Origin: an uncultured Pelagibacteraceae bacterium | GTDB taxonomy: Bacteria > Pseudomonadota > Alphaproteobacteria > Pelagibacterales > AG-422-B15 | Direction of reading: 5' to 3' | NCBI GenBank assembly: GCA_902624455.1 | Contig: CACNXQ010000001.1 | Location: forward strand, 160,238 to 224,237 | Length of the DNA stretch: 64,000 nt | Part shown: positions 47,606-64,000 of the stretch, one piece after another | How positions within the stretch are numbered: the first letter of the stretch is position 1 | Layout: every line of letters begins with the position of its first letter | Program-made: the position numbers and the translations under genes | Notes under the pieces: generated by a model | Databases searched by the model: none | Told to the model about the DNA's origin: nothing | The model's input: the letters and a program-made list of their open reading frames with translations, nothing else

Positions 47606-47647
47606 CAAGAAAACAATATACAATCTTTAGCAACAAAGATAGTTTTG

Positions 47648-47677
47648 TATTGAATAATCATTCAATATGGATATCAT
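47648..47677 (+). promoter_or_regulatory. palindromic operator TATTGAAT-N4-ATTCAATA overlapping promoter TTGAAT-N16-TATCAT
   Basis: Perfect 8-bp inverted repeat at 47648-47667 in the divergent TetR/oxidoreductase spacer. Confidence 0.75.
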
Positions 47678-47705
47678 ATGTGTGATTTCAAATATTTATA
47701 GATTT

Positions 47706-49334
47706 ATGGCCAAAAATTCACATGATGTAATTGTAATTGGTGCAGGGCACAATGGACTGACTGCTGCGAGTTATATGGCAAAGGCAGGTTTAGATGTTCT
47801 TGTTCTTGAAAAAAATGAATGGATCGGTGGAGCAGCTGTGAGTAGAGAGCTATTTCCAGGCTGGAAGTATTCTAATTGTTCATATGTTTGTAGTCTTTTA
47901 AGACCAGAGATTATGAGAGACCTAGAGTTGTACAAATATGGACTCCAAGTTATTCCATACGAGGGTAGTGCAACTATGATGCGAAATGGCGATTATTACG
48001 CTCATTATCATGATCATGATATGACAATCAAATCTATCAGACGACATTCACTTAAAGATGCGGAGGCTTATGAAAGATATAGCCGGGATGTACTTAGACA
48101 ATGTAAAATCATTAAACCATTACTAAAGATGACACCTCCAGATTTAACATCGTTTAAACCGAAAGATATTTTTGGGGCACTCGAGTTTGCAAAATATTTT
48201 GCCGCTAAAGATGAGCTCGGAGGATTAGGTGAGAAAGAAATTTACGATACGATACGTTTTTACACAATGAGTATTAGAGACTATTTAGATGAATATTTTG
48301 AAAGCGATATTACTAAAGCCCATTTAGCTGGAAGTGCAATAATTGGAACTGCACTAGGACCTTGCTCACCAGGATCAGCGTATGTTTTACTGCACCATTA
48401 TATGGGAGAAGTTGATGGATCTGTAGGTTCATGGGGTTATTCAAGAGGTGGCATGGGATCAATTACTAAAGCAATGACAGGTTGTCTTAAAGCTCATGGT
48501 GGTGATGTTAAGCCAAATAATCAAGTAGCAAATGTAATTGTCAAGAATGGTAAAGCAATTGGAGTTGCAACAACCAATGGTGATGAATATTATGCAAAGA
48601 AAATTGTTTCCAATTTAGATGTAAAAAGAACCTTCCTCACAATTACAGAGGAAAAATCTCTTCCATCAGATTTTGTTCAAAAAGTAAAAAATTTTAAAAT
48701 TAGAGGTTCCTCAGGCAAACTAAATATTGCACTAGATGGATTGCCTGATTTCCCATGTATACCTGAAGGAGATCCGGGTGGGGGTGGAGATATGCATTTC
48801 ACTGAAAGCATCGAGGAAATGGAAGGTGCTTATGATGATTGGAAGAGAGGGGAATGGTCAAAAAATCCATATGTTGATATGTGTATACCGTCAAAAAGTG
48901 ATCCTACTATGGCCTCTCCTGGTAAGCATTATATGTCAGTGTTTATTCAATACGTACCGTTCAATTTAGCAAATGGAGGTTGGAATGAAGAACGAAAGCA
49001 AGCATTTGGTAAACATATAATTGAATGTATTTCTGCATTTTCACCGAACTTTAAAGATCTGATAAATCACTATGAAGTAAGGACACCGCTAGACTTACAT
49101 AATGAAGTTGGGCTTACCGAAGGTAATATATTTCAAGGCGAATTGACCATGGACCAACTCATGTTTAATAGACCTGTAACCGGATATGCCCAGTACAGAA
49201 CGCCTCTAAAAAATATGTACATGTGCAGTTCTTCAACACACCCTGGAGGTGGAGTAATGGGAGCGCCTGGCGCAAATGCTGCACGAGAACTACTTTTAGA
49301 TATGAATATACCTCAAAAAGGCAACTATTATTAA
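47706..49334 (+). CDS. PYROXD2 / phytoene-dehydrogenase-like FAD oxidoreductase A
   Basis: VIGAGHNGL, GGAAVS.E..PG, SYVCSLLRPEI, AYVLLHHYMG, GGMG, GNIFQG, THPGGGVMGAPG; start MAKNSH at 47706. Confidence 0.85.
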   Translation: MAKNSHDVIVIGAGHNGLTAASYMAKAGLDVLVLEKNEWIGGAAVSRELFPGWKYSNCSYVCSLLRPEIMRDLELYKYGLQVIPYEGSATMMRNGDYYAHYHDHDMTIKSIRRHSLKDAEAYERYSRDVLRQCKIIKPLLKMTPPDLTSFKPKDIFGALEFAKYFAAKDELGGLGEKEIYDTIRFYTMSIRDYLDEYFESDITKAHLAGSAIIGTALGPCSPGSAYVLLHHYMGEVDGSVGSWGYSRGGMGSITKAMTGCLKAHGGDVKPNNQVANVIVKNGKAIGVATTNGDEYYAKKIVSNLDVKRTFLTITEEKSLPSDFVQKVKNFKIRGSSGKLNIALDGLPDFPCIPEGDPGGGGDMHFTESIEEMEGAYDDWKRGEWSKNPYVDMCIPSKSDPTMASPGKHYMSVFIQYVPFNLANGGWNEERKQAFGKHIIECISAFSPNFKDLINHYEVRTPLDLHNEVGLTEGNIFQGELTMDQLMFNRPVTGYAQYRTPLKNMYMCSSSTHPGGGVMGAPGANAARELLLDMNIPQKGNYY

Positions 49335-50851
49335 TGAGTCAGTCAGATTATGATGTCATTGTAATTGGCGGTGGCCATAACGGTCTTGTTTGCGCAAATA
49401 TTCTAGCAAAAAAAAATAAAAAAGTAATCATAGTCGAAGCAAGAAGCACCTGTGGAGGACTTTTAGATGATCAGATTATTAATTGTGTTCCAAACTTTAG
49501 TACTGAAGTTGTAAACGCATTAGGTGGTCTATCTGTTAAATATAAACCCAAGAGTACCATTGCATTATCCGAAACTGGCCAACACATAAGACTGACCGGA
49601 AACCAACATATTGATCACAGATCAATTGCAACTTTTTCTGAGTCAGATGCAGATAGGTACGTTGAATTTCATAATAAGATGTCATTATTTTCAAAAACAC
49701 TTGGATCATTCATGATGTCATCCCCACCACGTGTCATGAATCATAATTATTCTGACTATTTTAAACTTTTTAAACTCGGTATGAATGTGAGGTTTTTGGG
49801 AAAAAAGAATTTCAATGAATTTGCTAGAATGATCGGACTCAATATTGCAGATGAACTAGAGGATAATTTTGAAAACACATTACTTCAGGGGTTAATAGCT
49901 CATGACTCTATAATTGGTTCTAATCTAGGTCCTAGGTCCCCTGGAACAGTTATTAATTTAATGTATCGTATGGCAAATCATGACAATTCAATTTTTGGTG
50001 GTAATTACGAAATTGAAGGCGGATGCAATCAGCTAACTGATGCATTAGTTTCACTTGCTGAGAAAAATAAAATTAAAATTATTACTTCTGCTAAGGTTAG
50101 CAAGTGCATCATACAAGATGATAGAGCAATAGGCGTAGAGTTAGAAGATGGAAAACAGATTTACGGCAAATCTGTAGTATCTAATGCAGACCCTAAATCT
50201 ACATATTTTAATCTCTTAGGGTCTGAAAACTTAGATACTGATGTAAAGAGAAGAGTTAAACACTATCGTTCAAAAGGCCGCGTAGCAAAACTTATATTAG
50301 ATTTAAATAGTATACCCTCATTTAATAACTGTGATGAAAGCGACCTTGAAAGCCGAATGATAATTGCGCCGTCAATTGATTATATAGAGGAAAATTACAA
50401 TAGAAGTAAGTTTGATAAACTCTCTGACGAACCTATCATTGAATTATCACTTCAAGAAAATTCAGAAGGCATGAAACGACTAAATGTACAAGTTCAATAC
50501 GCATCATATAAAGTTCAGCATGGCTGGGATGAAGCTAAAGACCAATGTATAAATTCTGTCATTAAACTCATTAAGAAATACTCACCTGAGATTGAAAAAT
50601 CTATTGAGGGCAAAAAATTCATTTCACCTGATGATGTAGAAATAGATTATAATGTTTCTGGCGGCCACTGGCATCATGGAGAAATTCAAATCGACCAGCT
50701 ATTTATGTTAAGACCCATTCCTGGTGCATCCCAATATAAAACACATCTCGATGGACTTTATATGTGTGGTGCTGGTTCACATCCCGGAGGCGGACTGTCA
50801 GGCATTCCAGGAAAAAATGCAGCTCAGGAAATATTAAAAGGTACAAATTAA
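49334..50851 (+). CDS. PYROXD2 / phytoene-dehydrogenase-like FAD oxidoreductase B (divergent paralog)
   Basis: VIGGGHNGL, SNADP, GGHWHHGE, GAGSHPGGG; ATG overlaps the paralog A stop (TAATG). Confidence 0.85.
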   Translation: MSQSDYDVIVIGGGHNGLVCANILAKKNKKVIIVEARSTCGGLLDDQIINCVPNFSTEVVNALGGLSVKYKPKSTIALSETGQHIRLTGNQHIDHRSIATFSESDADRYVEFHNKMSLFSKTLGSFMMSSPPRVMNHNYSDYFKLFKLGMNVRFLGKKNFNEFARMIGLNIADELEDNFENTLLQGLIAHDSIIGSNLGPRSPGTVINLMYRMANHDNSIFGGNYEIEGGCNQLTDALVSLAEKNKIKIITSAKVSKCIIQDDRAIGVELEDGKQIYGKSVVSNADPKSTYFNLLGSENLDTDVKRRVKHYRSKGRVAKLILDLNSIPSFNNCDESDLESRMIIAPSIDYIEENYNRSKFDKLSDEPIIELSLQENSEGMKRLNVQVQYASYKVQHGWDEAKDQCINSVIKLIKKYSPEIEKSIEGKKFISPDDVEIDYNVSGGHWHHGEIQIDQLFMLRPIPGASQYKTHLDGLYMCGAGSHPGGGLSGIPGKNAAQEILKGTN

Positions 50852-52050
50852 TGTCAAAAGACAATCGGTTTATAGCACTTAAAAAGACCCCATTTCACTC
50901 ACGAACTAGTTTAGCTTCAAGAACAAACAAATGGTACAATTGGAATGGATACACCGTACCAACTGAATACTCAACAACCGAACTTGAATACACAGCAGCT
51001 CGTAATGGTACTTCAGTAATGGATCTTACTCCAATGTGTAAATACGAGATAAAGGGAAGCGATGCTCATAAATATATAGATTATCTTGTAACGCGCGACT
51101 TGTCTGAAATGAATGATAATACGGTTGCATATATCATTTGGTGCAATGAAGACGGAAAGGTAATAGATGATGGCACGATCTTTAAACATTCATCTGAACA
51201 CTTCATGCTTTGTTGTGCAGTTAAAATTCTAAATTGGCTTAACGACTCAGCTATTGGATTTGATGTAACTATAAAAGATGTTACTGACACCATCGCTGCA
51301 TTATCAATACAAGGACCTACTTCTTGTTCTACTTTAAAAAACTTTGGAGCAGACTCACTTGAAAATATGAAACCTTTCGAAATGAAAGAATATAATATAA
51401 ATGGATACAATGTCTTAATATCAAGAACAGGTTTTACTGGCGATCTTGGTTATGAACTTTGGACTGATCCTCAAAATGCTGAAACGATGTGGGACTCTGT
51501 AATGGAAGCAGGAAGTCTTCTAAAAATAAGACCATTTGGAATGAATGCTTTGGAGATGACTAGGATAGAAGCAGGATTTATTCAAACTAACACTGATTTT
51601 GTTGCCGCAGAGGATGCATTAAGACCTGTAAGAATGAGATCGCCCTATGAGATTGGAATGGGTTGGCTTGTTCATTTAAACAAAAAAAATTATTTTGTTG
51701 GAAAAAATGCATTAAAAAAAGAGAAGCAATCAGGAACTACTGAAAGATGTTTAGTTGGACTTGATATTGACGGCGATAAACCAGCACACGGTTCAGTTAT
51801 TTATAATGAAAAAAAAGAGGATATAGGTATTGTTACTGCAGCACTATGGTCACCAACACTGAAAAAAAATATTGCTCTAGCATCTCTCAAAAGACCTTAC
51901 GGCATTAAGATAAAAGACAATATTTTCGCTGAAATTTATCATCCTGAAGAAATTGAGTATCGAAAGATCTGGGCAAGATGTAAAATTGTTAAACGTCAGT
52001 TTTATTCACCAGAAAGAAGAAACAATGTGCCTGCTGACCTTTACGAGTAA
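50851..52050 (+). CDS. GcvT-like folate-binding aminomethyltransferase family protein
   Basis: TPFH, EY.A.R, DLTPM, GKVIDDG, IQGP, SRTGFTGDLGYE, RIEAG; start MSKDNR at 50851 overlaps upstream stop. Confidence 0.9.
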   Translation: MSKDNRFIALKKTPFHSRTSLASRTNKWYNWNGYTVPTEYSTTELEYTAARNGTSVMDLTPMCKYEIKGSDAHKYIDYLVTRDLSEMNDNTVAYIIWCNEDGKVIDDGTIFKHSSEHFMLCCAVKILNWLNDSAIGFDVTIKDVTDTIAALSIQGPTSCSTLKNFGADSLENMKPFEMKEYNINGYNVLISRTGFTGDLGYELWTDPQNAETMWDSVMEAGSLLKIRPFGMNALEMTRIEAGFIQTNTDFVAAEDALRPVRMRSPYEIGMGWLVHLNKKNYFVGKNALKKEKQSGTTERCLVGLDIDGDKPAHGSVIYNEKKEDIGIVTAALWSPTLKKNIALASLKRPYGIKIKDNIFAEIYHPEEIEYRKIWARCKIVKRQFYSPERRNNVPADLYE

Positions 52051-52080
52051 GTTTCCTTTAAAATACAACAAAAGTTCGTC

Positions 52081-52110
52081 ATTGAACGCTCATTCAATTT
52101 AATATATAAT
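52081..52110 (+). promoter_or_regulatory. second operator ATTGAA-N6-TTCAAT overlapping promoter TTGAAC-N17-TATAAT
   Basis: ATTGAACGCTCATTCAAT at 52081-52098; TATAAT at 52105-52110; ATG at 52116. Confidence 0.75.
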
Positions 52111-52115
52111 AGGGT

Positions 52116-53519
52116 ATGCCAAAATCTCAAACCAGCAAGCCATTAGATAATCTCAAAAATAGTTTAGATGATAGAATTCTCTATCCCTGGCAGTATTTAG
52201 AATATCTAGGCGAAGATGACAGAACATTCATTGAAAAATCTGAAGGAATTTATCTATTTGATAAGACGGGTCGAAAACTTATTGATGGACCTGGAGGAAT
52301 GTGGAATGTAAATGTTGGCCATGGTGTAAAAGAAATTGCTGATGCTGTGTATGCTCAAATAAGAAGTATGCCATATGCCAGTCCTTTTACAGAATCAACA
52401 GAAATTGCTTACAATTATGCATCTCGTTTAGTTAAGTATGCGCCGGGTGATTTAAAAAGAGTTTTTTTTACTTCTGGAGGATCTGCAGCAGTAGACTCTG
52501 CCTTAAGATTTGTAATGTTCTATAACAATGTTAGAGGATTAAGAGACAAGAAACAGATTATATCAAGGCATGATGCCTACCACGGAAGCACATATCTTGG
52601 GGCATCATGCTCAGGAAAAGAGCGAGATAAAAATAATTTTGACTTTGCTAATGACATTGTTCACCATTTGTCATCACCGAATCCATTTCGTAAGCCAGAT
52701 GATATGAGCGATGAAGATTTTTGTGACTTAAAAGTCAAAGAACTTGAAGATAAAATTATTGAGTTAGGTCCAGAAAAAGTTGCTGCATTTATTGCTGAAC
52801 CAATACTCGCATCAGGTGGGGTAATTGTTCCACCTAAAGGTTATCAGAAAAAGACGTTAGAAGTCTGTAGAAAATATGATGTCATCTATATTTCAGATGA
52901 AATAGTTACAGGTTTTGGGAGATTGGGACATATATTTGCTTCAGAAAACTACTTCGATATCCAACCGGACATTATTCTTTTAGCTAAAGGAATTACCTCA
53001 GGTTACGTGCCATGTGGTGCCGTTGTAATTTCAGAGCGACTAATGTCACAATTAGATCATAAGGAAAAAGTTATCTTTTCAAATGGCTTCACTGACTCAG
53101 GTCACCCAGTTAGTATGGCAGCTGCTACAGCTACACTTGATTATATCGAAAAAACAAACTTACTTGATCATGTGAAAGAAGTAGGCCCTTATCTACAGAG
53201 TAGACTTCAAGAATTAACTGACTTACCAATTGTTGGCGAAGTACGTGGTGAAGGTTTAATGGCTGCTGTTGAATGTGTAATCAGTAAAGAAAAAAAGGAT
53301 CCGTTGAATCTTCAATATGAGATTGCTTCAAGAATTAATTCCCATTGTCAAAACTTAGGACTGATTGTTAGACCTCTCTTTAATACATGCGTGATGTCAC
53401 CGTCATTAATAATTACTAAGGATCAAATTGACGATTTAGTGAGTATTCTTAGAAAAGGTATCGAGCTAGCTACAAAAGATATAAAAGAAGAAGGTCTGTG
53501 GTCTGCTGAAGCGAATTAA
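52116..53519 (+). CDS. class III PLP aminotransferase (omega-amine/putrescine:pyruvate type)
   Basis: DGPGGMWNVNVGHG, SGGS, YHGST, AFIAEPI, DEIVTGFGRLG, AKGITSGY. Confidence 0.9.
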   Translation: MPKSQTSKPLDNLKNSLDDRILYPWQYLEYLGEDDRTFIEKSEGIYLFDKTGRKLIDGPGGMWNVNVGHGVKEIADAVYAQIRSMPYASPFTESTEIAYNYASRLVKYAPGDLKRVFFTSGGSAAVDSALRFVMFYNNVRGLRDKKQIISRHDAYHGSTYLGASCSGKERDKNNFDFANDIVHHLSSPNPFRKPDDMSDEDFCDLKVKELEDKIIELGPEKVAAFIAEPILASGGVIVPPKGYQKKTLEVCRKYDVIYISDEIVTGFGRLGHIFASENYFDIQPDIILLAKGITSGYVPCGAVVISERLMSQLDHKEKVIFSNGFTDSGHPVSMAAATATLDYIEKTNLLDHVKEVGPYLQSRLQELTDLPIVGEVRGEGLMAAVECVISKEKKDPLNLQYEIASRINSHCQNLGLIVRPLFNTCVMSPSLIITKDQIDDLVSILRKGIELATKDIKEEGLWSAEAN

Positions 53520-54764
53520 ATGATTGAATTCCAACAGCTTTTAGAAAATTACCAAGAAGGTAAAGCACTTCCACAACAATTTTACACAAACGAAAAAATT
53601 TTTTCAGAAGAGATGAAAAGAATTTATTTCAAACAATGGTTAATGGTTGATCATGTATCAAGAATACCTAACCCTGGTGATTACTTTGTTTTTGAAGCTG
53701 AAAAAGAGTCCATAATTATCATTAGAGGAAGAGATGAAAAAATACGTGCATTTTATAATGTATGTACTCATCGTGGATCAAGGATATGTCTTGAAGAAGA
53801 AGGCACAAAAAAATTACTTGTATGCCCTTATCATGCATGGAGCTTTTCAGCTGAAGGAGATCTAAAGGCAGCAAGATATATGCCTGAGGATTTCAAAAAA
53901 GAGGAATGGGGTCTAAAAAAATGTCACCTAAAGATACACGAGGGATTGATATTTATTAATCTCTCTCTTGAGGAACCAATGGACTTCGACGAATTCATTG
54001 GTCCACTAAAGGAAATGCTTGAATTTCACCAAACAAGTAAAGCTCGAATTGCAACTAGAAAAAAATATCCAACGGAAGCAAATTTCAAACTAGTTCTTGA
54101 AAACTTTCAAGAGTGTTATCATTGTGGCCCTGCTCATCCTGAGCTTTGTTCAATTCATGAAAAAGACTGGGTTTATACAATGGGAGCTGGCGTAAATACA
54201 GCACCTGAAAAAGATACAAAAGAATACTTGGACAAAATACAGCCTTGGATTGAGGAATGTAAGAGTAAGGGCGTACCATCTGATACATACCTTGAATCTG
54301 AAGATGGTCTAAGAAAAGGTTTAAATCGTTATGTTGACAGAACTCCGATTGGAAATGGTCACTTGTCACAAACTAAAGATGGTAAACCGGCATCATCATT
54401 AATGGGTAAATTTAGTGAATTTGACGGGGGTCTCACACAAGTAAGTTTTAATCCTTTTGGATGTTGTTATTTAACAAATGATTTTGTCGTAATGTTTATT
54501 TTTAAACCAGTATCAATTGATTATTCAGAAGTTGAACTGGTTTGGCTAGTTGGTGATCAAGCTGAAGAAGGTAAGGACTATCAATCTGACGATGTTAGTT
54601 ACATGTGGGATGTAACAACACAAGCAGACACAACTATAATTGAAAATAACCAAAAAGGTGTTTATTCACGAGCATTTGCTCCTGGAATATTATCTGAAAA
54701 CGAGTCTGCAGTTACATATTTTTATGATTGGTATTTTACCAACATGAAAATGGGATCAAACTAA
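53520..54764 (+). CDS. Rieske non-heme iron oxygenase alpha subunit (GbcA/Stc2-like quaternary-amine demethylase group)
   Basis: NVCTHRG...CPYHAW Rieske ligands, ENFQECYHC..AH, WDVTTQAD..IIENNQKG. Confidence 0.9.
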   Translation: MIEFQQLLENYQEGKALPQQFYTNEKIFSEEMKRIYFKQWLMVDHVSRIPNPGDYFVFEAEKESIIIIRGRDEKIRAFYNVCTHRGSRICLEEEGTKKLLVCPYHAWSFSAEGDLKAARYMPEDFKKEEWGLKKCHLKIHEGLIFINLSLEEPMDFDEFIGPLKEMLEFHQTSKARIATRKKYPTEANFKLVLENFQECYHCGPAHPELCSIHEKDWVYTMGAGVNTAPEKDTKEYLDKIQPWIEECKSKGVPSDTYLESEDGLRKGLNRYVDRTPIGNGHLSQTKDGKPASSLMGKFSEFDGGLTQVSFNPFGCCYLTNDFVVMFIFKPVSIDYSEVELVWLVGDQAEEGKDYQSDDVSYMWDVTTQADTTIIENNQKGVYSRAFAPGILSENESAVTYFYDWYFTNMKMGSN

Positions 54765-54842
54765 AATCTCTACGCCGTTTCTATTTATTAGAATTAATGC
54801 TTGAAATATAAAGCCTTATAATGCTTAATATTTCCTGATAAT

Positions 54843-56198
54843 ATGAAACAACTTTACGACAAAGCTATCTATGATTTTGACAATCCTGTATCAAGCTATT
54901 GGGAAGAAATAAGTCATCCAGATCAAAACTCATATCCAAAATTAAAAGGAGATCAACAATGTGATATTGCTGTCATAGGCGGTGGTTTCACTGGCTTATC
55001 AACTGCATATCATTTAGCAAAACTCTACCAAAGAGATGTAAGATTACTAGAAGCTGGTCATGTTGGTTGGGCTTCCTCAGGTCGTAATGCAGGGTTTGTT
55101 TGTTTACCCGCAACAAAGCTTTCAATTCAAACTCTATTTAAAAGATATGGAATTGATGAAACTAAAAAGTTCTTTGCATCACAAGTTGAGGGCATGGATA
55201 TATTAGATTCAATTATTAAAGATCATAGCATTGAATGTGAGCAAATTGGAGATGGGAATTTAGATGTTGCTCATAGTCCCCATAGTTGTGATGGCTTGAA
55301 AGAATGGGGAAATGATTTAAAAAAATATTTTGGCATTAATACTCGTTGGATTCCAAAAGAAGAGTTTGATGAGTCAGGTCATCAATCTACAGAACAATTT
55401 GGAGCCGTTTTTATGGAGTCAGGTTTTGCTATGAACCCTCTTGCATTTCTTGGAGGATTTGCGAAGGCAACTGTAGAGGCAGGAGCGGTATTACATGGAC
55501 ATTCAAGGGTTAAAAAATGGGAAAGAAATGGCAAACATAGATTAATAACTGATGAAGGTTCATTGACAGCAAACCAAGTTGTGGTTGCAACAAATGGTTA
55601 CACTGATGAGTCGCTACACCAGAGTTTTGCTAACCGTATGGTGCCTGTTTTATCAAACATAATTGTTACAAGGGAGATGAGCGAAGATGAATTTAATCTT
55701 CAAAATTATAAAACTTTAAACCCTATTTGTAATAGTAGGGAAATACTCTATTACTATAGAAGAATGCCATCAAATAGAATGCTCTTTGGAACTAGAGGAG
55801 ATACTTACGGTGATGATCAAAGTGCAAATAAAATGAAGGATTATATGACTCAGAAATTTAGAGGTGTATTTCCTTCTTGGAATGATGTTGAAATTTCACA
55901 TTATTGGCGCGGTACGGTTGTTATGAATAGAGATCTAACTCCAGCATTTGGAAGTTTAGATGATGATCAAACTGTCCACTTCTCATATGGCTATTCAGCA
56001 AATGGAAACAATACAACAATTTATTGTGGTAAAAAGCTTGCTGAAATGATTTGTGAGTCAAACAGTGGTTCAACAAATATATCAGAGATATATAGAGGTT
56101 TATCACCTAAAATACCTTTTCCATTTCTCAGACTTTGGTACCTGAGGTTGTACCTTTGGTATTCAAAACTTCGGGATAAAAATAAAAAAGAATTATAA
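54843..56198 (+). CDS. FAD-dependent amine oxidoreductase (PuuB/DadA-like)
   Basis: SYW, IGGGFTGLS, GWASSGRNAG, VVATNGY, YYYR, GYS.NG. Confidence 0.85.
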   Translation: MKQLYDKAIYDFDNPVSSYWEEISHPDQNSYPKLKGDQQCDIAVIGGGFTGLSTAYHLAKLYQRDVRLLEAGHVGWASSGRNAGFVCLPATKLSIQTLFKRYGIDETKKFFASQVEGMDILDSIIKDHSIECEQIGDGNLDVAHSPHSCDGLKEWGNDLKKYFGINTRWIPKEEFDESGHQSTEQFGAVFMESGFAMNPLAFLGGFAKATVEAGAVLHGHSRVKKWERNGKHRLITDEGSLTANQVVVATNGYTDESLHQSFANRMVPVLSNIIVTREMSEDEFNLQNYKTLNPICNSREILYYYRRMPSNRMLFGTRGDTYGDDQSANKMKDYMTQKFRGVFPSWNDVEISHYWRGTVVMNRDLTPAFGSLDDDQTVHFSYGYSANGNNTTIYCGKKLAEMICESNSGSTNISEIYRGLSPKIPFPFLRLWYLRLYLWYSKLRDKNKKEL

Positions 56199-56199
56199 T

Positions 56200-56228
56200 T
56201 TGCAACCCATAGTTAGATAACATACTAT
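56200..56228 (+). promoter_or_regulatory. putative leaderless promoter TTGCAA-N17-TACTAT for the ABC permease genes
   Basis: -10 ends 7 nt before ATG 56236; no SD present. Confidence 0.55.
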
Positions 56229-56235
56229 TTTTTGG

Positions 56236-57129
56236 ATGATTAATTGGTGGAATAGTCTTTATTCAAGAAGTGATAATGCAAAAGCTTACGTATTATTATC
56301 CCCTGCTCTAATTCTTGTAATACTTGGTATGGCCGTCCCATTATTGGCGGTATTTTCTGTAAGCTTTACTACTCAAGCATCATTTGAGATTGACTATACC
56401 CCAACTTTTGATCGCTATATTGAGTTCATGGATACGAGTTCTAGAACAGGAAACGTATTAACAACTTTGCTGGGTCGCTCTATATCTATTTCCTTTTTAG
56501 TTGCCTTTTTTACACTTATCACAACCTACCCTGTTGCATACTATGTCGCATTTTATGTGAAGAAGAACAAAATGCTGTGGTTAGTATTAATGACTTTACC
56601 TTTTTGGACTTCATATTTACTCAGAGTGTTTGCATGGAAATTAATTCTAGGCCACAAAGGAGTCATAAATGCAAGCTTAATGACTGTAGGGTTCATTGAT
56701 GAGCCTCTTGGATTTCTTATGTACAGTCAAACAGCAGTTGTCATTACTCTTGCGCATGCCTGGGCAGCTTTTGCATTGCTGCCTCTCTATGTAAGTTTAG
56801 AAAAAATTGATTATTCTCTCATAGAAGCATCGCACGATCTTGGATGCACAAAATTTGAAACATTCTGGAGAGTTGTGTGGCCATTAAGTTTACCGGGTGT
56901 AATAGGAGCTGTTCTGATTATTTTTATTCCCACTGTTGGTGATTATGTAACGCCAGCTTTAGTTGGAGGCACTGAAGGTAGGATGTTATCTAATATGATA
57001 CAAACTTATTTTGGTCGGGCTAATAATTTTCCATTAGGTGCGGCTTCAGCTGTAATCATGTTGATTAGTGTCGCATTGGTTACAATTGCTGTAAATGTAG
57101 TAACAAAAAGACTAACGCAGAGGTTATAG
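56236..57129 (+). CDS. polyamine-type ABC transporter permease (PotB/PotH-like)
   Basis: YPVAY, PFWTSYLLR, EAS.DLG (EAA loop), P.SLPG, P.LVGG. Confidence 0.9.
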   Translation: MINWWNSLYSRSDNAKAYVLLSPALILVILGMAVPLLAVFSVSFTTQASFEIDYTPTFDRYIEFMDTSSRTGNVLTTLLGRSISISFLVAFFTLITTYPVAYYVAFYVKKNKMLWLVLMTLPFWTSYLLRVFAWKLILGHKGVINASLMTVGFIDEPLGFLMYSQTAVVITLAHAWAAFALLPLYVSLEKIDYSLIEASHDLGCTKFETFWRVVWPLSLPGVIGAVLIIFIPTVGDYVTPALVGGTEGRMLSNMIQTYFGRANNFPLGAASAVIMLISVALVTIAVNVVTKRLTQRL

Positions 57130-57132
57130 AAA

Positions 57133-57945
57133 ATGAAACTTAACGAAAATAGAACATTATATATTTACGTTCTTATTTATTTTGGTTTTCTTTATATACC
57201 AGTAATGTTCCTTCCTATATTTTCTTTCAATCAAGGAATTCATATGGCATTTCCATTGCAGGGATTTTCAACTGAGCATTACGAGGATATGTGGAATTCA
57301 CCGAAATTGTTTGATGCATTATGGAATAGTATTTATGTAGGAGTTGTCTCAAGTTTAATGGCAACAATGCTCGCTTTTTTTGCAGCAAAAGCGTTTACAA
57401 AGTATAAGTTTCGCGGCCAAGCTTTGTCATATGGTGCTATTCTTACGCCCTTCTTAATTCCTGAAATTATTCTTGCAATTGCTCTATTGGTTATATGGGT
57501 ATCTGTTGGACTACCTCTAGGACTTACACCCATAATTATTGGTCATGTTCTTTTTTGTACTCCTTTTTGCATGATTATACTTATCGCAAGAATGGAGGGG
57601 TTTGATAATAATCTTGAGGAAGCATCGAGAGATCTGGGAGAAGGAGTATTCATGACGTTTTGGAGGGTTTCATTCCCAATTTTACTTCCAGGTTTAATTG
57701 CTGCTTTTCTTCTTGGCTTTATAATTTCATTTGACGAATTTTTATTAGCAATGTTCCTTCAGGGCTCAGACCAAACATTGCCTATATATATGTGGGGACA
57801 ATTGAGATTTGCTAGAAGGTTGCCACATGTATTGGCGCTTGGTGCAGTAATTATAGTTGCCACTAGCCTTGTTGTAATGTTAGCTTATTGGCTCAGGAAC
57901 GTAGGACAACCTCAGGAGAAGCAAGATTTAACATTTAAAATATAA
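57133..57945 (+). CDS. polyamine-type ABC transporter permease (PotC/PotI-like)
   Basis: FLYIP, FSFN, EEASRDLG, SFDEF, TLP. Confidence 0.9.
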   Translation: MKLNENRTLYIYVLIYFGFLYIPVMFLPIFSFNQGIHMAFPLQGFSTEHYEDMWNSPKLFDALWNSIYVGVVSSLMATMLAFFAAKAFTKYKFRGQALSYGAILTPFLIPEIILAIALLVIWVSVGLPLGLTPIIIGHVLFCTPFCMIILIARMEGFDNNLEEASRDLGEGVFMTFWRVSFPILLPGLIAAFLLGFIISFDEFLLAMFLQGSDQTLPIYMWGQLRFARRLPHVLALGAVIIVATSLVVMLAYWLRNVGQPQEKQDLTFKI

Positions 57946-59030
57946 TGAGCGAAAATTTTATAGATATCAGAAATATTTCTAGACATTTTGGAACAGTTAA
58001 AGCTGTTGATGATGTTTCCTTTTCTATTAAACAGGGTGAGTTTTTTAGTCTTTTGGGACCGAGTGGATGCGGTAAAACGACATTGCTCCGTTTACTAGCA
58101 GGATTTGAATCTGCAAATCAAGGTGAAATTTTTATTGATGGTGTTGACGTTACCACAATGCCTCCAAACTTGAGACCAACTAATATGGTTTTTCAAAATT
58201 ATGCAATTTTTCCACATATAAATGTAAAAAAGAACATCGAATTTGGAATGAGAAAGGAAAAACTCTCAAAGCAAGAACTTGAAAATAGAGTTCAAGAGGT
58301 TTTATCGTTGGTTAAACTAGAAGGTTACGAAGAAAGATTTTCTAATCAGCTTTCTGGAGGTCAAAGACAAAGAATTGCATTAGCAAGAGCGCTTATTAAA
58401 AGACCAAAAGTTTTACTACTAGATGAACCTTTGGGCGCACTCGATAAAAAATTAAGAGATGAAATGCAGATTGAATTAAGAAATCTTCAAAAAGCCGTAG
58501 GTATTACATTTGTTTTCGTTACACACGATCAAAGTGAGTCAATCAGTATGTCAGATAGAGTTGCAGTTATGAATGAAGGTCAAATTCAACAAATATCAGA
58601 TCCACATGATCTATATTATAATCCACAAAATATATTTGTAAGTGATTTCATAGGAACAACTAATTTTTTATCTTCATCTACAGGAAGCAGTAATGGAGAA
58701 AATATTATGGTTAAAATTGATCAAATTGGCGAATTTAGTATCAAGAATAAACTGAATATACCTGAAAATGATAACGAAACAGTAGTTTCTATAAGACCTG
58801 AAGCTATTGTCTTATCTCCATCTCCGATTGACAAAGGAGATATTGTAATGGAGGGAACAATTGAAAATTCCTCTTATTATGGAGAATTAACAAGTTTTTA
58901 CGTAAGAGTTCAGGGTGCTGAAAATCCACTTATTGCGTCCTCACAACGGTTTGATAATAATTCATTTGAAGGAAACAAGTGTTACTTATCTATTAATTTT
59001 GAGGATATAAACCTGCTAAAAAAAGAATAG
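57945..59030 (+). CDS. polyamine-type ABC transporter ATPase (PotA/PotG-like)
   Basis: GPSGCGKTT, VFQNYA, LSGGQ, LLLDEPLGALD, VTHDQ, TOBE-like C-terminus. Confidence 0.93.
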   Translation: MSENFIDIRNISRHFGTVKAVDDVSFSIKQGEFFSLLGPSGCGKTTLLRLLAGFESANQGEIFIDGVDVTTMPPNLRPTNMVFQNYAIFPHINVKKNIEFGMRKEKLSKQELENRVQEVLSLVKLEGYEERFSNQLSGGQRQRIALARALIKRPKVLLLDEPLGALDKKLRDEMQIELRNLQKAVGITFVFVTHDQSESISMSDRVAVMNEGQIQQISDPHDLYYNPQNIFVSDFIGTTNFLSSSTGSSNGENIMVKIDQIGEFSIKNKLNIPENDNETVVSIRPEAIVLSPSPIDKGDIVMEGTIENSSYYGELTSFYVRVQGAENPLIASSQRFDNNSFEGNKCYLSINFEDINLLKKE

Positions 59031-59052
59031 CCTGCCAATAAATGACAGGCTA
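59016..59052 (-). terminator. intrinsic terminator of the substrate-binding protein gene
   Basis: Minus strand TAGCCTGTCA-TTTAT-TGGCAGGCTA hairpin followed by TTCTTTTTTT. Confidence 0.7.
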
Positions 59053-59076
59053 CTCAAAAAAGTTAATTAATTTTTT

Positions 59077-60192
59077 TTAAACAACTCCTGCAGACCATTC
59101 AGCCCATCGAGCTTCAATATAGTCTGTTACTTCAGGTTTTGCTTCATTACTGAAGTTACCATTCTGTAAGTGAGTCATTGGATCTAATGCAAGTCCACGT
59201 TCAATCTTATCCGCTTCTGAAATTGCATCGTATCCAACTTTATTTACATGGCCGTATCCATATTCTAAAAGCATAAATGCAGAACATTCTGGAGATTGCG
59301 CAGCATTAATTACTTCGTATGCAACATCTAAATTTGCTCCTTTAGGAATACAGAAACCACACATCCAAGTTAAGCTACCTTCTTTTGGAGAGATCATTGG
59401 GAAACCAGTGTTCCATGAACTTTCATTCCATACGACTGCAGCATGAACTTCTTCAGACATCATTGCTTCTTCAAGAGAAGTTGGGTCTGGACTAAGAAGT
59501 CTTATGTTTGGTCTTAATTTTTCCATAGGACCATCAAATAAACGATCAACGTCCTCAATGGTTAAATCTTCCATTTTTGTAACATCGATCCCCATTCCAA
59601 TCATGATCAAGTATAAAGAGTCTGCAGCACTATCAAGCATTGCAACTTTACCCTCTAGTCTTTTATCAAACAACATCATGATTGTTTCTTTACCTGGATC
59701 AGTATTTATCCAAGGTTGTGCATCTTTGTTTACTATTATTGAAGTATCTCCAAATTCACATGGTGCAAACCAGTGCTGGTCTTTAAAGTATGTTGTAGGC
59801 ATTTTCTTAGAGTCTTCGAATAAATTATTCCAGTGAACACATCTTGATGTATCAATTGGCTGTATAATATCAGCTCTATGCCATCTAAATGGATCTGCAT
59901 TACATGGGTGTGCAGTATCACACTGGAATCCAGCCCTTATTTTTTGAAGCATTGACTCTGAATCATCAGCTACAGTAAACTCTAATCTATCAGGATCCAT
60001 TCCTGGATACATGTCAGGTATATCGTATCCTGACCAAGTTAATACTCTTGCGTTATCTGCAGCAAAAGCACTGTTTGCGCCGAATTGAGTAGTTGCTACT
60101 AGACCTGCAGCTCCCATCGCCTTCATAAGCTGACGTCTATTAAGCTTCCTGCCCATAATTTGTTTAGCTATATTGCTTTTTGGTTTAGACAT
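59077..60192 (-). CDS. PotD/PotF-like periplasmic binding protein with Tat signal
   Basis: NRRQLMK Tat motif, LTWSGY, IQPIDTS, PKEG..W..G; GAAGGGGAG SD. Confidence 0.87.
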   Translation of the reverse strand: MSKPKSNIAKQIMGRKLNRRQLMKAMGAAGLVATTQFGANSAFAADNARVLTWSGYDIPDMYPGMDPDRLEFTVADDSESMLQKIRAGFQCDTAHPCNADPFRWHRADIIQPIDTSRCVHWNNLFEDSKKMPTTYFKDQHWFAPCEFGDTSIIVNKDAQPWINTDPGKETIMMLFDKRLEGKVAMLDSAADSLYLIMIGMGIDVTKMEDLTIEDVDRLFDGPMEKLRPNIRLLSPDPTSLEEAMMSEEVHAAVVWNESSWNTGFPMISPKEGSLTWMCGFCIPKGANLDVAYEVINAAQSPECSAFMLLEYGYGHVNKVGYDAISEADKIERGLALDPMTHLQNGNFSNEAKPEVTDYIEARWAEWSAGVV

Positions 60193-60269: not shown

Positions 60270-61766
60270 TCAGCCAATTAAAGGCCATTTTTCCTTACTA
60301 TTTAACCATGGATCGAGTTTTTCAAAATTATAACCACCTTGAAAGACTTTTTCGTCACAAAAAGCTTTGGAAACTATTTGAATTCCTGTTGGAACACCTA
60401 AGTTTGAAAAGCCAGAGGGTACAGCTAAAACTGGAAGTCTGCCTAGAATATTGAAGGGATAGCTCATACACCAAGATACATCGGGTCCTTCCTGTACCTT
60501 ATTATTAATAATTACTTTATCTTTTTTTAGATCCATATCTGCTTTTACAGACGGCAAACAATTCGTAGGACAAACTAATATATCATATTCCTCAAGAATC
60601 GGCGAAATCTCCAAATACATTTCACCTGCAACATTCGCACAGTCACGCGATGTATACCCCAAGTAGGCACCCAGTTCATCAGAGTAGATTTTTTTATCTT
60701 CAGCAATCGCCTTAAAATGTAAATCTGATAATTTTGCATACATTTGTGCATATTCAGTCATTTCTTGCCTTTCATCTTCTGGTACTTCAGCGAGAGTTCT
60801 AAAAAATGCTCCGCCGGCATAATGACTGTAACAAGTAGAGTCAACCTCCTCTTTTTTCCAATTGAGTTTTATTTCATTAACACTAGCTCCCAAAGTTTTA
60901 AATTTTTCGACTGCTTCAAGTGTATTTTTCTCAACTGTTTCATCAACTTCGAAAAAACCCAAATCAAGTGAGTATGCTATTTTCCAACCCTTTATATTTT
61001 CATAATCAAGGGAAAGTGTTTTTTTTGGACTTATTGTTGTTATATCATTTGGGTGTGGTCCACACATTACATTCTGCATTAGCGCACAGTCAGACACAGT
61101 TCTAGCCATTGGTCCAACTACGCAGTAATGATCAAGATTAAATGGATGAGCAATTGGATTCCTCCCATACGGTGGTTTGTAGCCAACAATACCACATGCA
61201 GATGCAGGTATTCTTATTGATCCACCGATATCACTTCCAGTTGCAATTGTAGTCATTCCAGCTGCTAAAGATGCTCCACTACCACCAGAAGATCCTCCCG
61301 GTGAAAAATTTAAATTCCATGGATTCTTGCTAACACCGTTTAATATTGAATGAGTAAATGACGTTAAGGAAAATTCAGGACATGTAGATCTTGCATGGAT
61401 AATAGCGCCAGAGTTAACTATTCTTTCAACATCAATATCGGTATGTCTTGATAAATTATTTTTAAACATCTGTGATCCCATTGTGTTTATCTGTCCATCT
61501 ATCGAAACTTCGTCTTTAATTGCTGTCGGCAAACCATCAAGAGGCAACGTTAATGCATCACTAAAATATTTATCTTCAGACTTTTTTGCTTCTTTTAATG
61601 CTTTTTCAAAATATAATTGATTGAACGCATTAATCTCGGAATTGATGCTTTCAATTCTTTTTATTATTTCCTGTAATAATTCAACGGGGGAGATTGATTT
61701 ATTCTTGAACTTTTTTATTGCCTCATTAGCTGAAAGGTAACAAATCTCTAAGTCTGCAGTATTCAT
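60270..61766 (-). CDS. amidase signature family enzyme
   Basis: AIKD (Lys), PGGSSGGS, GSDIGGSIRIPAS (Ser-cisSer-Lys triad). Confidence 0.92.
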   Translation of the reverse strand: MNTADLEICYLSANEAIKKFKNKSISPVELLQEIIKRIESINSEINAFNQLYFEKALKEAKKSEDKYFSDALTLPLDGLPTAIKDEVSIDGQINTMGSQMFKNNLSRHTDIDVERIVNSGAIIHARSTCPEFSLTSFTHSILNGVSKNPWNLNFSPGGSSGGSGASLAAGMTTIATGSDIGGSIRIPASACGIVGYKPPYGRNPIAHPFNLDHYCVVGPMARTVSDCALMQNVMCGPHPNDITTISPKKTLSLDYENIKGWKIAYSLDLGFFEVDETVEKNTLEAVEKFKTLGASVNEIKLNWKKEEVDSTCYSHYAGGAFFRTLAEVPEDERQEMTEYAQMYAKLSDLHFKAIAEDKKIYSDELGAYLGYTSRDCANVAGEMYLEISPILEEYDILVCPTNCLPSVKADMDLKKDKVIINNKVQEGPDVSWCMSYPFNILGRLPVLAVPSGFSNLGVPTGIQIVSKAFCDEKVFQGGYNFEKLDPWLNSKEKWPLIG

Positions 61767-61830
61767 ATGTTTTCACTTAATTATTTTATTTTAATTTATC
61801 AATTAATTAAATATATTAAAATCACAGTTT

Positions 61831-62925
61831 ATGAATATTAATAGTCAATTAAAAAATATTATAACTTCACAGAAAGTCGATGAAGGTTTCCATCAGTTAT
61901 TTTTTACTGATGAAAATCTATTTAAATTAAGTTTTGAAGCTATTTTTAAGAAACAATGGGTATTTATTACTCATTATTCTCATTTTTATGACAATGATGA
62001 ATTCATTTATAATTTAACTGATGGTTATGTTATTGTAAAAAAAATTGGTGATAAGTTAGAAGCGTCTCATTCAAATAATACAACAACTTGTCACACTAAA
62101 ATTTTTGAACATTTAGTTTTTATAAACTTATCAGAAAACCCGTATGATTTTGAAGAGTTTATTAAGCCTCTAGAGCCATATATAAAAATGCACGGTTTAA
62201 AAAAAGGCAAAATTGCCTTTCAAAAAGACTACGTATTCAATGCATCTCATCTTGCCACAATCCAGAATTTCAAAGAATGTAATCATTGCTGGGGAGGAGA
62301 ATTTTCTCATAAAGATTATTTAGATGTTCATGGATCAACTTATTGTAATTCTTACGGGGCTGGTGTTGGATCCGGTATTGAGTCTGAAGAATTTAATGAA
62401 CGATTAGAAAAGTGGACACAGGATACAAGAAATAAAGGTTTGTTTGTTGATGAATTTTCTGAGAATGATCCAAAGTTTTTTCGTGTTGCTGAAAGAACAC
62501 CACTAAAAGAAGGAATACTTTCTGAAACAAGGGACGGATCATATAGTTGCACGTCTCTGATGGGAGATTTCAAAAAGTTCGGAGCTGACGGGGGCTATAC
62601 TGCTGTTGGGTTTTCGCCATTTAATAGTTTTGTGGCGAATAATGAGTTCTCTATTTTGTTTGTATTTTCACCAATATCCAAAAATAAAACAATCGTTACG
62701 CAAATGTGGGTAACAGATGTTGAAGCTGAATGTGATATCGATAAAATGATATTTCTTTGGGACAGGACAACCTTGGAAGATTCTCAATTATGTGAGATGA
62801 ATCAAAAAGGAATTGAAAGTATCGCATATTCAGAAGGTGTATATGGAAGTCTTGAAAAATCTTTAATACTGTACCAAAAATTTTATTTGGACCATTTACA
62901 AGATCACATAAGAAGCCGGGCTTAA
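61831..62925 (+). CDS. ring-hydroxylating oxygenase alpha-subunit homolog lacking the Rieske cluster segment
   Basis: Aligns with 53520-54764 (FKKQW, CH.KI.E.L.FINLS, NF.EC.HC, GAGV, RTP, SLMG.F, DGG, WD.TT..D, NQKG) but has no CxH...CxxH. Confidence 0.8.
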   Translation: MNINSQLKNIITSQKVDEGFHQLFFTDENLFKLSFEAIFKKQWVFITHYSHFYDNDEFIYNLTDGYVIVKKIGDKLEASHSNNTTTCHTKIFEHLVFINLSENPYDFEEFIKPLEPYIKMHGLKKGKIAFQKDYVFNASHLATIQNFKECNHCWGGEFSHKDYLDVHGSTYCNSYGAGVGSGIESEEFNERLEKWTQDTRNKGLFVDEFSENDPKFFRVAERTPLKEGILSETRDGSYSCTSLMGDFKKFGADGGYTAVGFSPFNSFVANNEFSILFVFSPISKNKTIVTQMWVTDVEAECDIDKMIFLWDRTTLEDSQLCEMNQKGIESIAYSEGVYGSLEKSLILYQKFYLDHLQDHIRSRA

Positions 62926-62940
62926 AACATTTTTTCACCA

Positions 62941-64000
62941 ATGGATACAGCAAAAATCAGTGAACTAGATCAAGCTTTACGTAAGTATAAAAACATAAAA
63001 TATGTAGACGCCATTTTTACAGATCTTTGTGGGTATATTAGGGGAAAAAGGTTTCCAGTTAATGAGGCTGATAAAATTTTCACTGATGGAGTATTATTAC
63101 CTTTCTCAGCATTTTATTTAGATGTTTTAGGAGGTGTAACAAATACTCTAAATCTTGGATTTACAGATGGTGACCCTGATGGTGTACTTGTTCCAATAAA
63201 TGACACTTTAAAAATAGTACCATGGGATAAAAAAGTTCTTCAAGTTCTCATTTCCATGAGAAGCTACCAAGAAAAGTGGGGGGTTATTAAAAAACCAGCT
63301 GAAGTTGATCCAAGAAATATTTTAAAAAAAATAATAAAAAAATTTGATGGTACTGGATTAAAGCCTGTAGTAGCTATTGAGCTCGAATTTTACTTACTCG
63401 ATAAAAAAAGAAACAAAGAAGGCAAACCTGTTCCTGCTAAAGGTGTCAGTAAAACAAATGTATATGGAATACCTGACCTTGATATATTTGGCAGGCTTTT
63501 TGATGAAATTAATGAAAATTGTAAAAAACAAGGTATACCAGCTACGACTGCATCAAGTGAATTTGCAGCTGGACAATATGAAATAAATTTAAAACATACT
63601 GAAAACTTATTAAAGGCAGCAGATGACGCTGCCTTACTTAGAAGGATTATAAAAGAAACGAGTGCAAAACACGGTTATGAAGCTACATTTATGGCAAAAC
63701 CATTTTTGGACGAAACAGGAAGTGGCATGCACCTTCATGTTTCTGTTTATGATCAAAAAGGAAAAAATATATTTGCCTCACCTAATAGATATGGAAATAG
63801 TAAACTGAAGAATGCTATAGCGGGATTACAATCAAATTTTTATGACAGCTTTCCGATATTTATACCAAACCAAAACGGATATCGAAGAATACAAACTAGA
63901 AATTTCGTACCGGTAAACACAAGTTGGTCATGGAATAGAAGGGATGCATCCCTTAGAATACCTGCGGGTTCTAAGAATGCTAAAAGAGTAGAGCACAGGG
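62941..64000 (+). CDS. glutamine synthetase family gamma-glutamyl-amine ligase (PuuA/PauA-like), truncated by window end
   Basis: Manual translation MDTAKISE...DLCGYIRGKR, DGDPD, ELEFYL, EFAAGQYEINL, FMAKPF...GSGMHLHVS, SLRIP, RVEHR; no stop before 64000, so absent from the ORF track. Confidence 0.88.
   Translation, partial: MDTAKISELDQALRKYKNIKYVDAIFTDLCGYIRGKRFPVNEADKIFTDGVLLPFSAFYLDVLGGVTNTLNLGFTDGDPDGVLVPINDTLKIVPWDKKVLQVLISMRSYQEKWGVIKKPAEVDPRNILKKIIKKFDGTGLKPVVAIELEFYLLDKKRNKEGKPVPAKGVSKTNVYGIPDLDIFGRLFDEINENCKKQGIPATTASSEFAAGQYEINLKHTENLLKAADDAALLRRIIKETSAKHGYEATFMAKPFLDETGSGMHLHVSVYDQKGKNIFASPNRYGNSKLKNAIAGLQSNFYDSFPIFIPNQNGYRRIQTRNFVPVNTSWSWNRRDASLRIPAGSKNAKRVEHR

Follow-up and report, generated by a model that had tools for sequence, protein, structure and literature searches.

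We analyzed a 64,000-nucleotide stretch of DNA from an uncultured Pelagibacteraceae bacterium (assembly GCA_902624455.1, contig CACNXQ010000001.1), hereafter the window, and specifically a short gene near its 3' end that encodes a homologue of the alpha subunits of Rieske oxygenases (P0001; coordinates in Table 1). What defines Rieske oxygenases is that electrons are relayed from the [2Fe-2S] cluster of one subunit to the iron of the neighbouring subunit. Our results show that an ancestor of one Pelagibacterales family cleanly lost both [2Fe-2S]-binding loops. We regard it as almost certain that the product of the gene is functional and belongs to the lineage of alpha subunits of the quaternary-amine (“group V”) Rieske monooxygenases. 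As to how the protein works, we put forward, tentatively and with more doubt than conviction, that it binds iron, activates O2 and takes electrons in trans from the Rieske cluster of another protein.

The short protein aligns end-to-end with the intact 414-residue paralogue encoded in the same window (P0002; 113 identities over 414 columns, 27%, E 5e-55 in BLASTP), with one long gap of about 50 residues that takes out C82-x-H84 and C102-x-x-H105 of the intact protein; all four [2Fe-2S] ligands lie inside this gap. The distance between the invariant Trp43 and Cys87 is 43-45 residues in all 43 unique members of the short family (44 in 39 of them), and 94 residues in all 21 intact relatives. In Pfam searches the short protein matched PF00848 (28.9 bits against a cut-off of 24.9, residues 262-357) and gave no match to PF00355 even at E values up to 1, whereas the intact paralogue matched both. 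A preliminary description of this DNA, made from its letters, had claimed a clean in-frame loss of about 50 residues with all four cluster ligands, an uninterrupted open reading frame (ORF), a retained iron site in the motifs NFKECNHC...H (E149, H152, H160) and WDRTTLED (D317) with the bridging glutamate still in place, and had predicted the absence of PF00355 alongside the presence of PF00848. All of this was borne out, the spacing between the two histidines being seven residues and not four. Among NCBIfam models, both proteins match best the GbcA glycine betaine monooxygenase equivalog NF058607, for which the short protein scores 125.8 bits and the paralogue 302.5, both below the cut-off of 670. 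Of the names found in the sources, “Rieske 2Fe-2S family protein” is wrong for the short protein, and “SRPBCC family protein”, the NCBI name for the short family, is uninformative.

The deletion is not a peculiarity of one sequence. A search of protein collections retrieved 70 relatives among 1,080 candidates: 14 are full-length 90%-identity clusters with PF00848 only (364-366 residues, 58-100% identical, comprising 1,979 member sequences), 9 are partial sequences of the short family, 46 are intact proteins of 404-420 residues with both domains and 1 is an unrelated fusion. We also sampled 201 genomes of the order Pelagibacterales, 60 from the family f1 (the window's genome included) and 141 from the family f2. 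In f1 the short gene turned up in 46 of the 60 genomes, so that the loss is not unique to one assembly, and two of the 141 f2 genomes gave only weak N-terminal matches (E about 5e-6). Twelve of the 13 f1 genomes that are at least 90% complete carry it; the thirteenth (G018, 92%) has a contig break inside the gene island to which the short gene belongs. The 14 f1 genomes without it are mostly incomplete (51-86%), and in both G018 and G032 contig ends fall inside the island. Among 32 fetched orthologous loci, 30 hold the full 364-residue ORF with no stops, one runs off the end of its contig and one, from genome G004, encodes a 359-residue variant discussed below.

Independent DNA agrees with the assembly. 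At least 0.92 of the sampled words of positions 61700-63400 were present in 15 DNA runs from 7 studies (one of them possibly the window's own source), and metagenome contigs from two studies (X3 and X6) cross this interval and the deletion junction free of indels, with 3-4 substitutions. Parts of the short gene also occur in contigs (X16 and X17) of two metatranscriptomic libraries, both from one study; record 1 of X16 bridges the junction without indels, and two such contigs run from the short gene into the next ORF. As DNA carry-over is possible, these contigs show presence in RNA libraries, neither transcription nor a single transcript. The ratio of non-synonymous to synonymous substitution rates (dN/dS), calculated with the NG86 (Nei-Gojobori) method for those ortholog pairs whose dS lay between 0.05 and 1.5 (174 of 435), had a median of 0.057 (range 0.016-0.142), near the 0.034 of the intact paralogue and not about 1; in 26 matched genome pairs the values were 0.058 for the short gene and 0.034 for the paralogue. 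A decaying pseudogene or an assembly artefact, for which nothing speaks beyond the missing segment itself, was thus rejected in view of the full ORFs in 30 of 32 loci, the low dN/dS, the 15 DNA runs and the independent contigs without indels, and we practically dismiss it.

E149, C150, H152, C153 and H160 are invariant in 40 aligned sequences and at least 95% conserved in the 43 unique family members. The predicted ligands H152, H160 and D317 align with the ligand columns of the intact relatives and are invariant across these 43 sequences, and so is the putative bridging glutamate E149, three positions before the first iron histidine. In all, 181 of the 364 positions are at least 95% conserved within the family, and 68 of these are common to the 21 intact relatives, including E149, C150, H152, C153, H160, H167 and D317. 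W310, T313 and D317, as well as the stretch E322, N324, Q325, K326 and G327, are likewise shared by the short family and the intact proteins. On the other hand, 71 replacements are fixed in and specific to the short family, many of them at positions where intact proteins are invariant. They include the change of N-W-K to S-H-L at 139-141, adjoining the iron motif, P161K, D272E, I321C and the new cysteines Cys172 and Cys240. The histidine spacing is HX7H in the short protein and HX4H in intact relatives, and the stretch between the two residues varies, with 7 or 8 residues. Regional medians of dN/dS were 0.034 for the catalytic domain (residues 101-364), 0.11 for residues 1-100 and 0.21 for residues 61-95 around the junction. 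After losing the cluster, the short protein evolved rapidly and later came under strong purifying selection.

This pattern bears on the idea that the short protein is a non-catalytic pseudoenzyme, that is, a ligand-binding or scaffold subunit that modulates the intact oxygenase or the adjacent glutamine-synthetase-like (GS-like) enzyme, or that holds an intermediate in the pocket of its SRPBCC fold. Proteins of this fold commonly bind ligands, the NCBI family name points the same way, and both the electron relay and the NWK motif beside the iron site have been lost or changed. Nevertheless, the three metal ligands and the bridging glutamate are invariant in the 43 unique sequences while the residues between the histidines vary, and it is the catalytic domain that has the lowest dN/dS. 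We consider such a role quite unlikely.

Concerning the origin of the short gene, a carefully built tree placed the intact paralogues of the f1 islands in one group and an intact 410-residue family in a second one, which is joined by the cluster-less 359-residue protein of G004 (94/94). The 364-residue family comes out as sister to the 410-residue group (96/91), and its stem measures 1.14 changes per site. The short gene thus does not descend from its intact neighbour. The word “paralog” used in the preliminary description, which points to a recent local duplicate, needs correcting, since the two proteins are some 27-37% identical and the tree places the short gene nearer to another intact family. 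The hosts of the 410-residue family are HIMB59/MarineAlpha5-type Alphaproteobacteria and Marinoscillum-type Bacteroidota, and in its loci the amidase gene directly adjoins the GS-like gene, no cluster-less gene being interposed. As a separate observation, the 410-residue oxygenase is 60-67% identical between the Marinoscillum-type Bacteroidota (loci L078-L103) and the HIMB59-type Alphaproteobacteria (L052-L077), and the Marinoscillum gene lies next to a GcvT-like gene and the genes of the same two CrtI-like flavoproteins, which suggests transfer of an island module between marine phyla.

The G004 variant (L034:6487-7566, minus strand) sits in the corresponding genomic slot, ahead of the GS-like gene, in a locus with no amidase. 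It is 66% identical to the C-terminal part of the 410-residue family, has a Trp-to-Cys distance of 44 and keeps HX4H and the intact-type pocket residues. A single grouping of all SAR11 cluster-less proteins was not rejected (approximately unbiased test, p 0.337). One ancestral deletion is the simplest account, because the variant shares the slot and the Trp-to-Cys distance with the 364-residue family and the joint grouping is not rejected; on this account, the G004 protein looks like a slowly evolving form, or stage, of the same loss.

In a wider search of 1.84 billion representatives, which gave 433 relatives at E values up to 0.001, we found further proteins with PF00848 only: P0101 (365 residues, Pirellulales, named “SRPBCC family protein” by NCBI), P0126 (377 residues) and P0211 (334 residues). 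All three, which belong to other phyla (Pirellulales and others), keep the Glu/His/His/Asp motif. P0101 nests beside intact Alcaligenaceae proteins, and the cluster-less state changes five times on the tree. Loss of the cluster loops has therefore occurred several times independently. Besides, clusters of 307 and 321 residues with PF00848 only, mostly from Ascomycota, were among the nearest clusters in the ESM Atlas, and cluster-less catalytic domains may exist in fungi too.

The AlphaFold2 model of the short protein, built from a 40-row alignment, had a predicted local distance difference test score (pLDDT) of 91.8 and a predicted template modelling score (pTM) of 0.91. Residues 5-362 of the model superpose on residues 6-406 of a chain of Stc2 (3vca; Z 41.4, root mean square deviation 2.2 Å over 341 residues); values were Z 41.4 with a Foldseek E of 1.8e-25 for 3n0q, Z 26-28 for CntA and Z 15.3 for NdmA. 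As the model superposes on the Stc2-type fold, only the cluster-binding part is gone; the catalytic domain remains in full, and so does the base of the Rieske domain. The protein is thus predicted to fold, a point on which the preliminary description had made its reading depend.

The mechanism that we tentatively favour runs as follows. Mononuclear iron would still be bound at His152, His160 and Asp317, and O2 activation there would lead to hydroxylation or N-demethylation of an intermediate of the amine island described below; this intermediate may be the product or the substrate of the GS-like enzyme, because the latter is the adjacent operon partner. Electrons would come in trans from the Rieske cluster of the intact in-island paralogue, the obvious candidate donor. 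In a head-to-tail docking of the two proteins, the cluster of the paralogue would lie about 12 Å from the iron of the short protein, bridged by Glu149. By analogy, the arrangement would resemble that of NdmC served by NdmD, except that here the donor would be a second oxygenase subunit and not a reductase. The docking of the intact paralogue with the cluster-less partner reached an ipSAE score of 0.81, as against 0.00 for the best of three controls; this level is attained by 58 of 80 solved complexes, as compared with 2 of 110 mismatched pairs, counts that apply approximately here because the docking used self-built alignments. Three runs agreed in at least 97% of contacts, with a partner pLDDT of at least 89. 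In the docked model, the paralogue segments 79-88 and 101-106, in which all four cluster ligands lie, are in contact with residues 151-152, 154-158, 320 and 323-334 of the short protein, so that the interface is the canonical one and includes, on the side of the short protein, H152 and the family insert 154-158.

Several observations weigh against this mechanism. First, the docking result may reflect likeness to solved trimers, because homotrimeric Rieske oxygenases of the same fold have been solved, and the score shows likeness, not binding, of the two modelled proteins. Second, the interface residues are not more conserved than the whole protein (16 of 28 against 181 of 364 positions at the 95% level, hypergeometric p 0.27), and the pLDDT of the single-chain model dips to 69-87 around residues 150-190. 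Third, the pocket is heavily remodelled (the 71 fixed changes, NWK to SHL, HX7H and the cysteines 172, 240 and 321), which could mean a different chemistry. Fourth, the two oxygenase genes are 8 kb apart and belong to separate transcription units, the short gene being tied to the GS-like gene rather than to the intact oxygenase. Fifth, no reductase of the GbcB/CntB type or bearing a Rieske domain was found in the window's genome (G000, 99% complete, 1.32 Mb). Sixth, in the locus of the Pirellulales protein P0101 (L113:10001-11098), where the neighbours are a methyltransferase, an ABC (ATP-binding cassette) ATPase and a SpoIIE/GAF protein, the 10 kb to each side encode no intact alpha subunit. 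Finally, no precedent for a mixed alpha trimer was found in the literature examined, which was available in part, and the metal binding, oligomeric state and activity of the short protein are predictions from sequence and model.

Several of these observations also speak for a stand-alone, homo-oligomeric metalloenzyme that needs no Rieske electrons. Its His-His-Asp site might serve four-electron or substrate-driven oxidation, oxygenation through the H2O2 “peroxide shunt”, or non-redox Lewis-acid catalysis on an island intermediate. The remodelled active site with its three new conserved cysteines, the long stem branch of the family, the operon position with the GS-like gene and not with the intact oxygenase, the Pirellulales protein with no intact paralogue nearby, the missing oxygenase reductase and the repeated loss of the cluster loops with Glu/His/His/Asp kept each time would all fit. 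Furthermore, the amine-oxidase and DAO-family flavoproteins of the island could release H2O2, and turnover of Rieske dioxygenases driven by H2O2 has reportedly been described in vitro. Nonetheless, the bridging glutamate and the NQKG surface, which meets the Rieske loops of a neighbour in the docking model, are invariant although a cluster-less homotrimer would have no need of them for electron transfer, the short gene co-occurs with the intact paralogue in 39 of 46 genomes of the family, and the G004 variant keeps HX4H and a nearly intact-type pocket in spite of having no cluster loops. We hold a stand-alone enzyme to be unlikely.

In a more specific form, the short protein would be a natural peroxygenase that uses H2O2 from the amine-oxidase/DAO-type flavoproteins as both oxidant and electron source, and therefore needs neither Rieske cluster nor reductase. 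This would account for the failure to find an oxygenase reductase in the streamlined genome, for the independent cluster-less lineages that keep the iron site with no intact paralogue nearby, and for the new conserved cysteine one helical turn from the Asp ligand. Even so, we judge it decidedly improbable. Another possibility is that a homotrimer of the short protein is reduced directly by a small non-Rieske donor, such as a [2Fe-2S] ferredoxin of 113 residues, docked in the cleft that opens where the neighbouring subunit has lost its loops. The retained Glu-His-His-Asp site, the presence of this Fer2 protein in the genome, the lack of a detected Rieske-bearing reductase and the position of the 154-158 insert, located in the model where such a donor would dock, speak for it; on the other side, no ferredoxin gene is linked to the island and the literature examined, part of which was accessible, offered no precedent. 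We regard this supply route as improbable.

Supply of electrons by the intact paralogue is favoured by the co-occurrence of the two genes. Among the 46 genomes that carry the short gene, 39 also have the paralogue (once as a fragment), in 35 of them on the same contig about 8 kb away, and at least five of the seven genomes with no detected paralogue have the short gene at a contig end. The corresponding search in f2 gave matches in 92 of 141 genomes (including G111), which are other oxygenases, as they are 31-37% identical and confined to the N-terminal half. The 99%-complete genome encodes three Rieske domains, in the in-island paralogue, in a 380-residue oxygenase on another contig and in a 169-residue protein, and two Fer2 domains, in the 113-residue ferredoxin (contig C2) and in an 839-residue protein (contig C7). 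Altogether, of the three functions that the preliminary description had offered (catalytic subunit in a hetero-oligomer with the intact paralogue, stand-alone non-heme iron enzyme, or ligand-binding protein), the hetero-oligomer gained some support from the shared island, from the finding of no other soluble Rieske protein in the genome and from a multimer model that passed where the controls did not, even if this pass possibly reflects likeness to solved trimers; none of these lines decides among the three.

Separately, the 380-residue oxygenase (G000:C3, L127:976-2118) matches the GbcA model with its N-terminal half, and an aldehyde dehydrogenase of the SSADH/BADH type (L127:2133-3575) lies directly downstream of it, an arrangement reminiscent of carnitine-type cleavage.

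The features of the window are collected in Table 1. The short gene lies where the preliminary description had placed it, 64 nucleotides from the start of a divergent amidase gene and 15 nucleotides upstream of the GS-like ORF. The island begins with a TetR/BetI-like regulator (minus strand), two amine-oxidase/CrtI-like flavoproteins, a GcvT-like folate aminomethyltransferase and a class-III aminotransferase, continues with the intact Rieske oxygenase, a DAO-family flavoprotein, ABC permeases and ATPase and a PotD/F-like binding protein (minus strand), and ends with the amidase (minus strand), the cluster-less gene, the GS-like gene, an AlaX-like gene and an enoyl-CoA hydratase. This content fits the uptake and breakdown of a cationic, probably N-methylated amine. 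The gene order is kept across genera, in G002, G006, G028, G032 and G018, and largely in G004, from whose island the amidase is absent at its usual position. The adjacency of the short and GS-like genes is kept in all four fetched loci that reach the latter. A scan of positions 61500-63200 gave 7 promoter-like sites, with 9.4 expected, and no terminators.

Table 1. Features of the island within the window, in positions of the 64,000-nucleotide stretch.
Feature	Position	Strand	Basis or remarks
Cluster-less Rieske-oxygenase alpha-subunit homologue (P0001)	61831-62925	+	Uninterrupted ORF, 364 residues, ATG start
Junction, residues 79-88 (SHSNNTTTCH); cluster loops (CxH, CxxH) missing within a segment of about 50 residues	62065-62094	+	Alignments
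Putative iron-site motif N146-F-K-E149-C-N-H152-C-W-G-G-E-F-S-H160 (bridging Glu and two His, HX7H)	62266-62310	+	
W310-D-R-T-T-L-E-D317, helix with the predicted carboxylate iron ligand; family-specific C321 one turn later	62758-62781	+	
Intact Rieske monooxygenase alpha subunit (P0002), 414 residues, candidate trans Rieske-cluster donor	53520-54764	+	PF00355 and PF00848
Amidase	60270-61766	-	PF01425, NCBIfam amidase models; divergent, 64-nucleotide intergenic region to the short gene
Glutamine-synthetase-like (PuuA/GmaS-like) gene	62941-64000, past the window end (456 residues in L004)	+	NCBIfam, Pfam; 15 nucleotides downstream of the short gene
Rest of the island	46961-60192	mixed	Regulator, flavoproteins, GcvT-like, aminotransferase, intact Rieske gene, DAO-family flavoprotein, ABC genes

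Two further details of the island were noted. The overlaps of about 100 nucleotides between the flavoprotein and GcvT-like ORFs (49223-49334 and 50764-50851) stem from upstream GTG starts; with the internal ATG starts at 49331 and 50848 each overlap shrinks to 4 nucleotides, as in translational coupling. The gene after the GS-like one encodes a free-standing AlaX-like tRNA-editing-domain protein of 240 residues (L004:2552-3274, just beyond the end of the window) and is followed by the enoyl-CoA hydratase gene; among the four fetched loci that reach this point it is present in G006 and G002 and missing from G004 and G028.

In the short family, the relay by which Rieske oxygenases are defined has been removed while the iron site is preserved, and this state is conserved throughout a SAR11-type branch that is represented by about two thousand metagenomic sequences. 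If the paralogue does feed the short protein, this would be the first known case of an oxygenase alpha subunit acting as Rieske donor to a second one; if the short protein works alone, the catalytic domain would be redeployable with no supply of reductant. As the cluster has been lost several times independently, the question is a general one. It also bears on the breakdown of nitrogen-rich, probably methylated amines by abundant bacteria of the ocean and, in practical terms, on annotation, for the current names of the short protein are wrong or uninformative.

Several known systems can be compared with the short protein. The closest functional likeness is to NdmC of the NdmCDE N7-demethylase of Pseudomonas putida CBB5, as described in passages of a review: NdmC, a non-heme iron monooxygenase, contains no Rieske cluster, NdmD has an extra one and the glutathione S-transferase (GST)-like NdmE is required (PMC4408171). 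The likeness is that of a Rieske-family oxygenase with no cluster of its own, which in the case of NdmC depends on a cluster borne by another protein. Beyond NdmC, our literature searches, which did not cover supplements, returned no published proteins of this kind. There are also differences, as (i) in NdmCDE the cluster is carried by the reductase NdmD, whereas no Rieske-bearing reductase is among the three PF00355 matches of the window's genome, (ii) none of the island genes, to which the scan was confined, is GST-like, and (iii) the subfamily is unlike Ndm, given the Z of 15.3 for NdmA against 41.4 for Stc2. As for two paralogous Rieske alpha subunits in one complex, NdmA and NdmB provide a precedent, forming an alpha3-alpha'3 assembly of two stacked trimers (6ICK/6ICL) according to the accessible portion of a 2025 review (PMC12445004); there, however, each subunit carries its own Rieske cluster and the trimers are stacked homotrimers, not a mixed one.

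With CntA and GbcA, the group V quaternary-amine oxygenases, the short protein shares a bridging glutamate rather than an aspartate. In the sections of PMC7948474 consulted, the bridging Glu205 of CntA is essential, and cluster and iron are 12.2 Å apart across subunits and 44 Å apart within one subunit. Two positions before the bridging glutamate, an aromatic residue (F147) probably corresponds to Y203 of CntA by motif register, as far as the same sections allow. Unlike CntA and GbcA, the short protein has no Rieske cluster and its genome has yielded no CntB/GbcB-type reductase. In structure, the closest likeness is to the stachydrine (proline betaine) demethylase Stc2 (3vca/4qup) and the uncharacterised 3n0q, with Z 41.4 and root mean square deviations of 2.2-2.4 Å over 341-346 residues. 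Of the solved structures, these also match best in sequence (E 1.7e-29 and 3.9e-21), and they share the Glu-x-x-His...His...Asp motif; yet, compared with Stc2, the short protein has no cluster loops, HX7H instead of HX4H and SHL instead of NWK, at an identity of about 20-25%. Its nearest relatives, the sister group of 410-residue intact oxygenases, have a full Rieske domain, and the 359-residue G004 variant combines the genomic slot and the net deletion size of the 364-residue family with the HX4H spacing and the pocket of the intact type.

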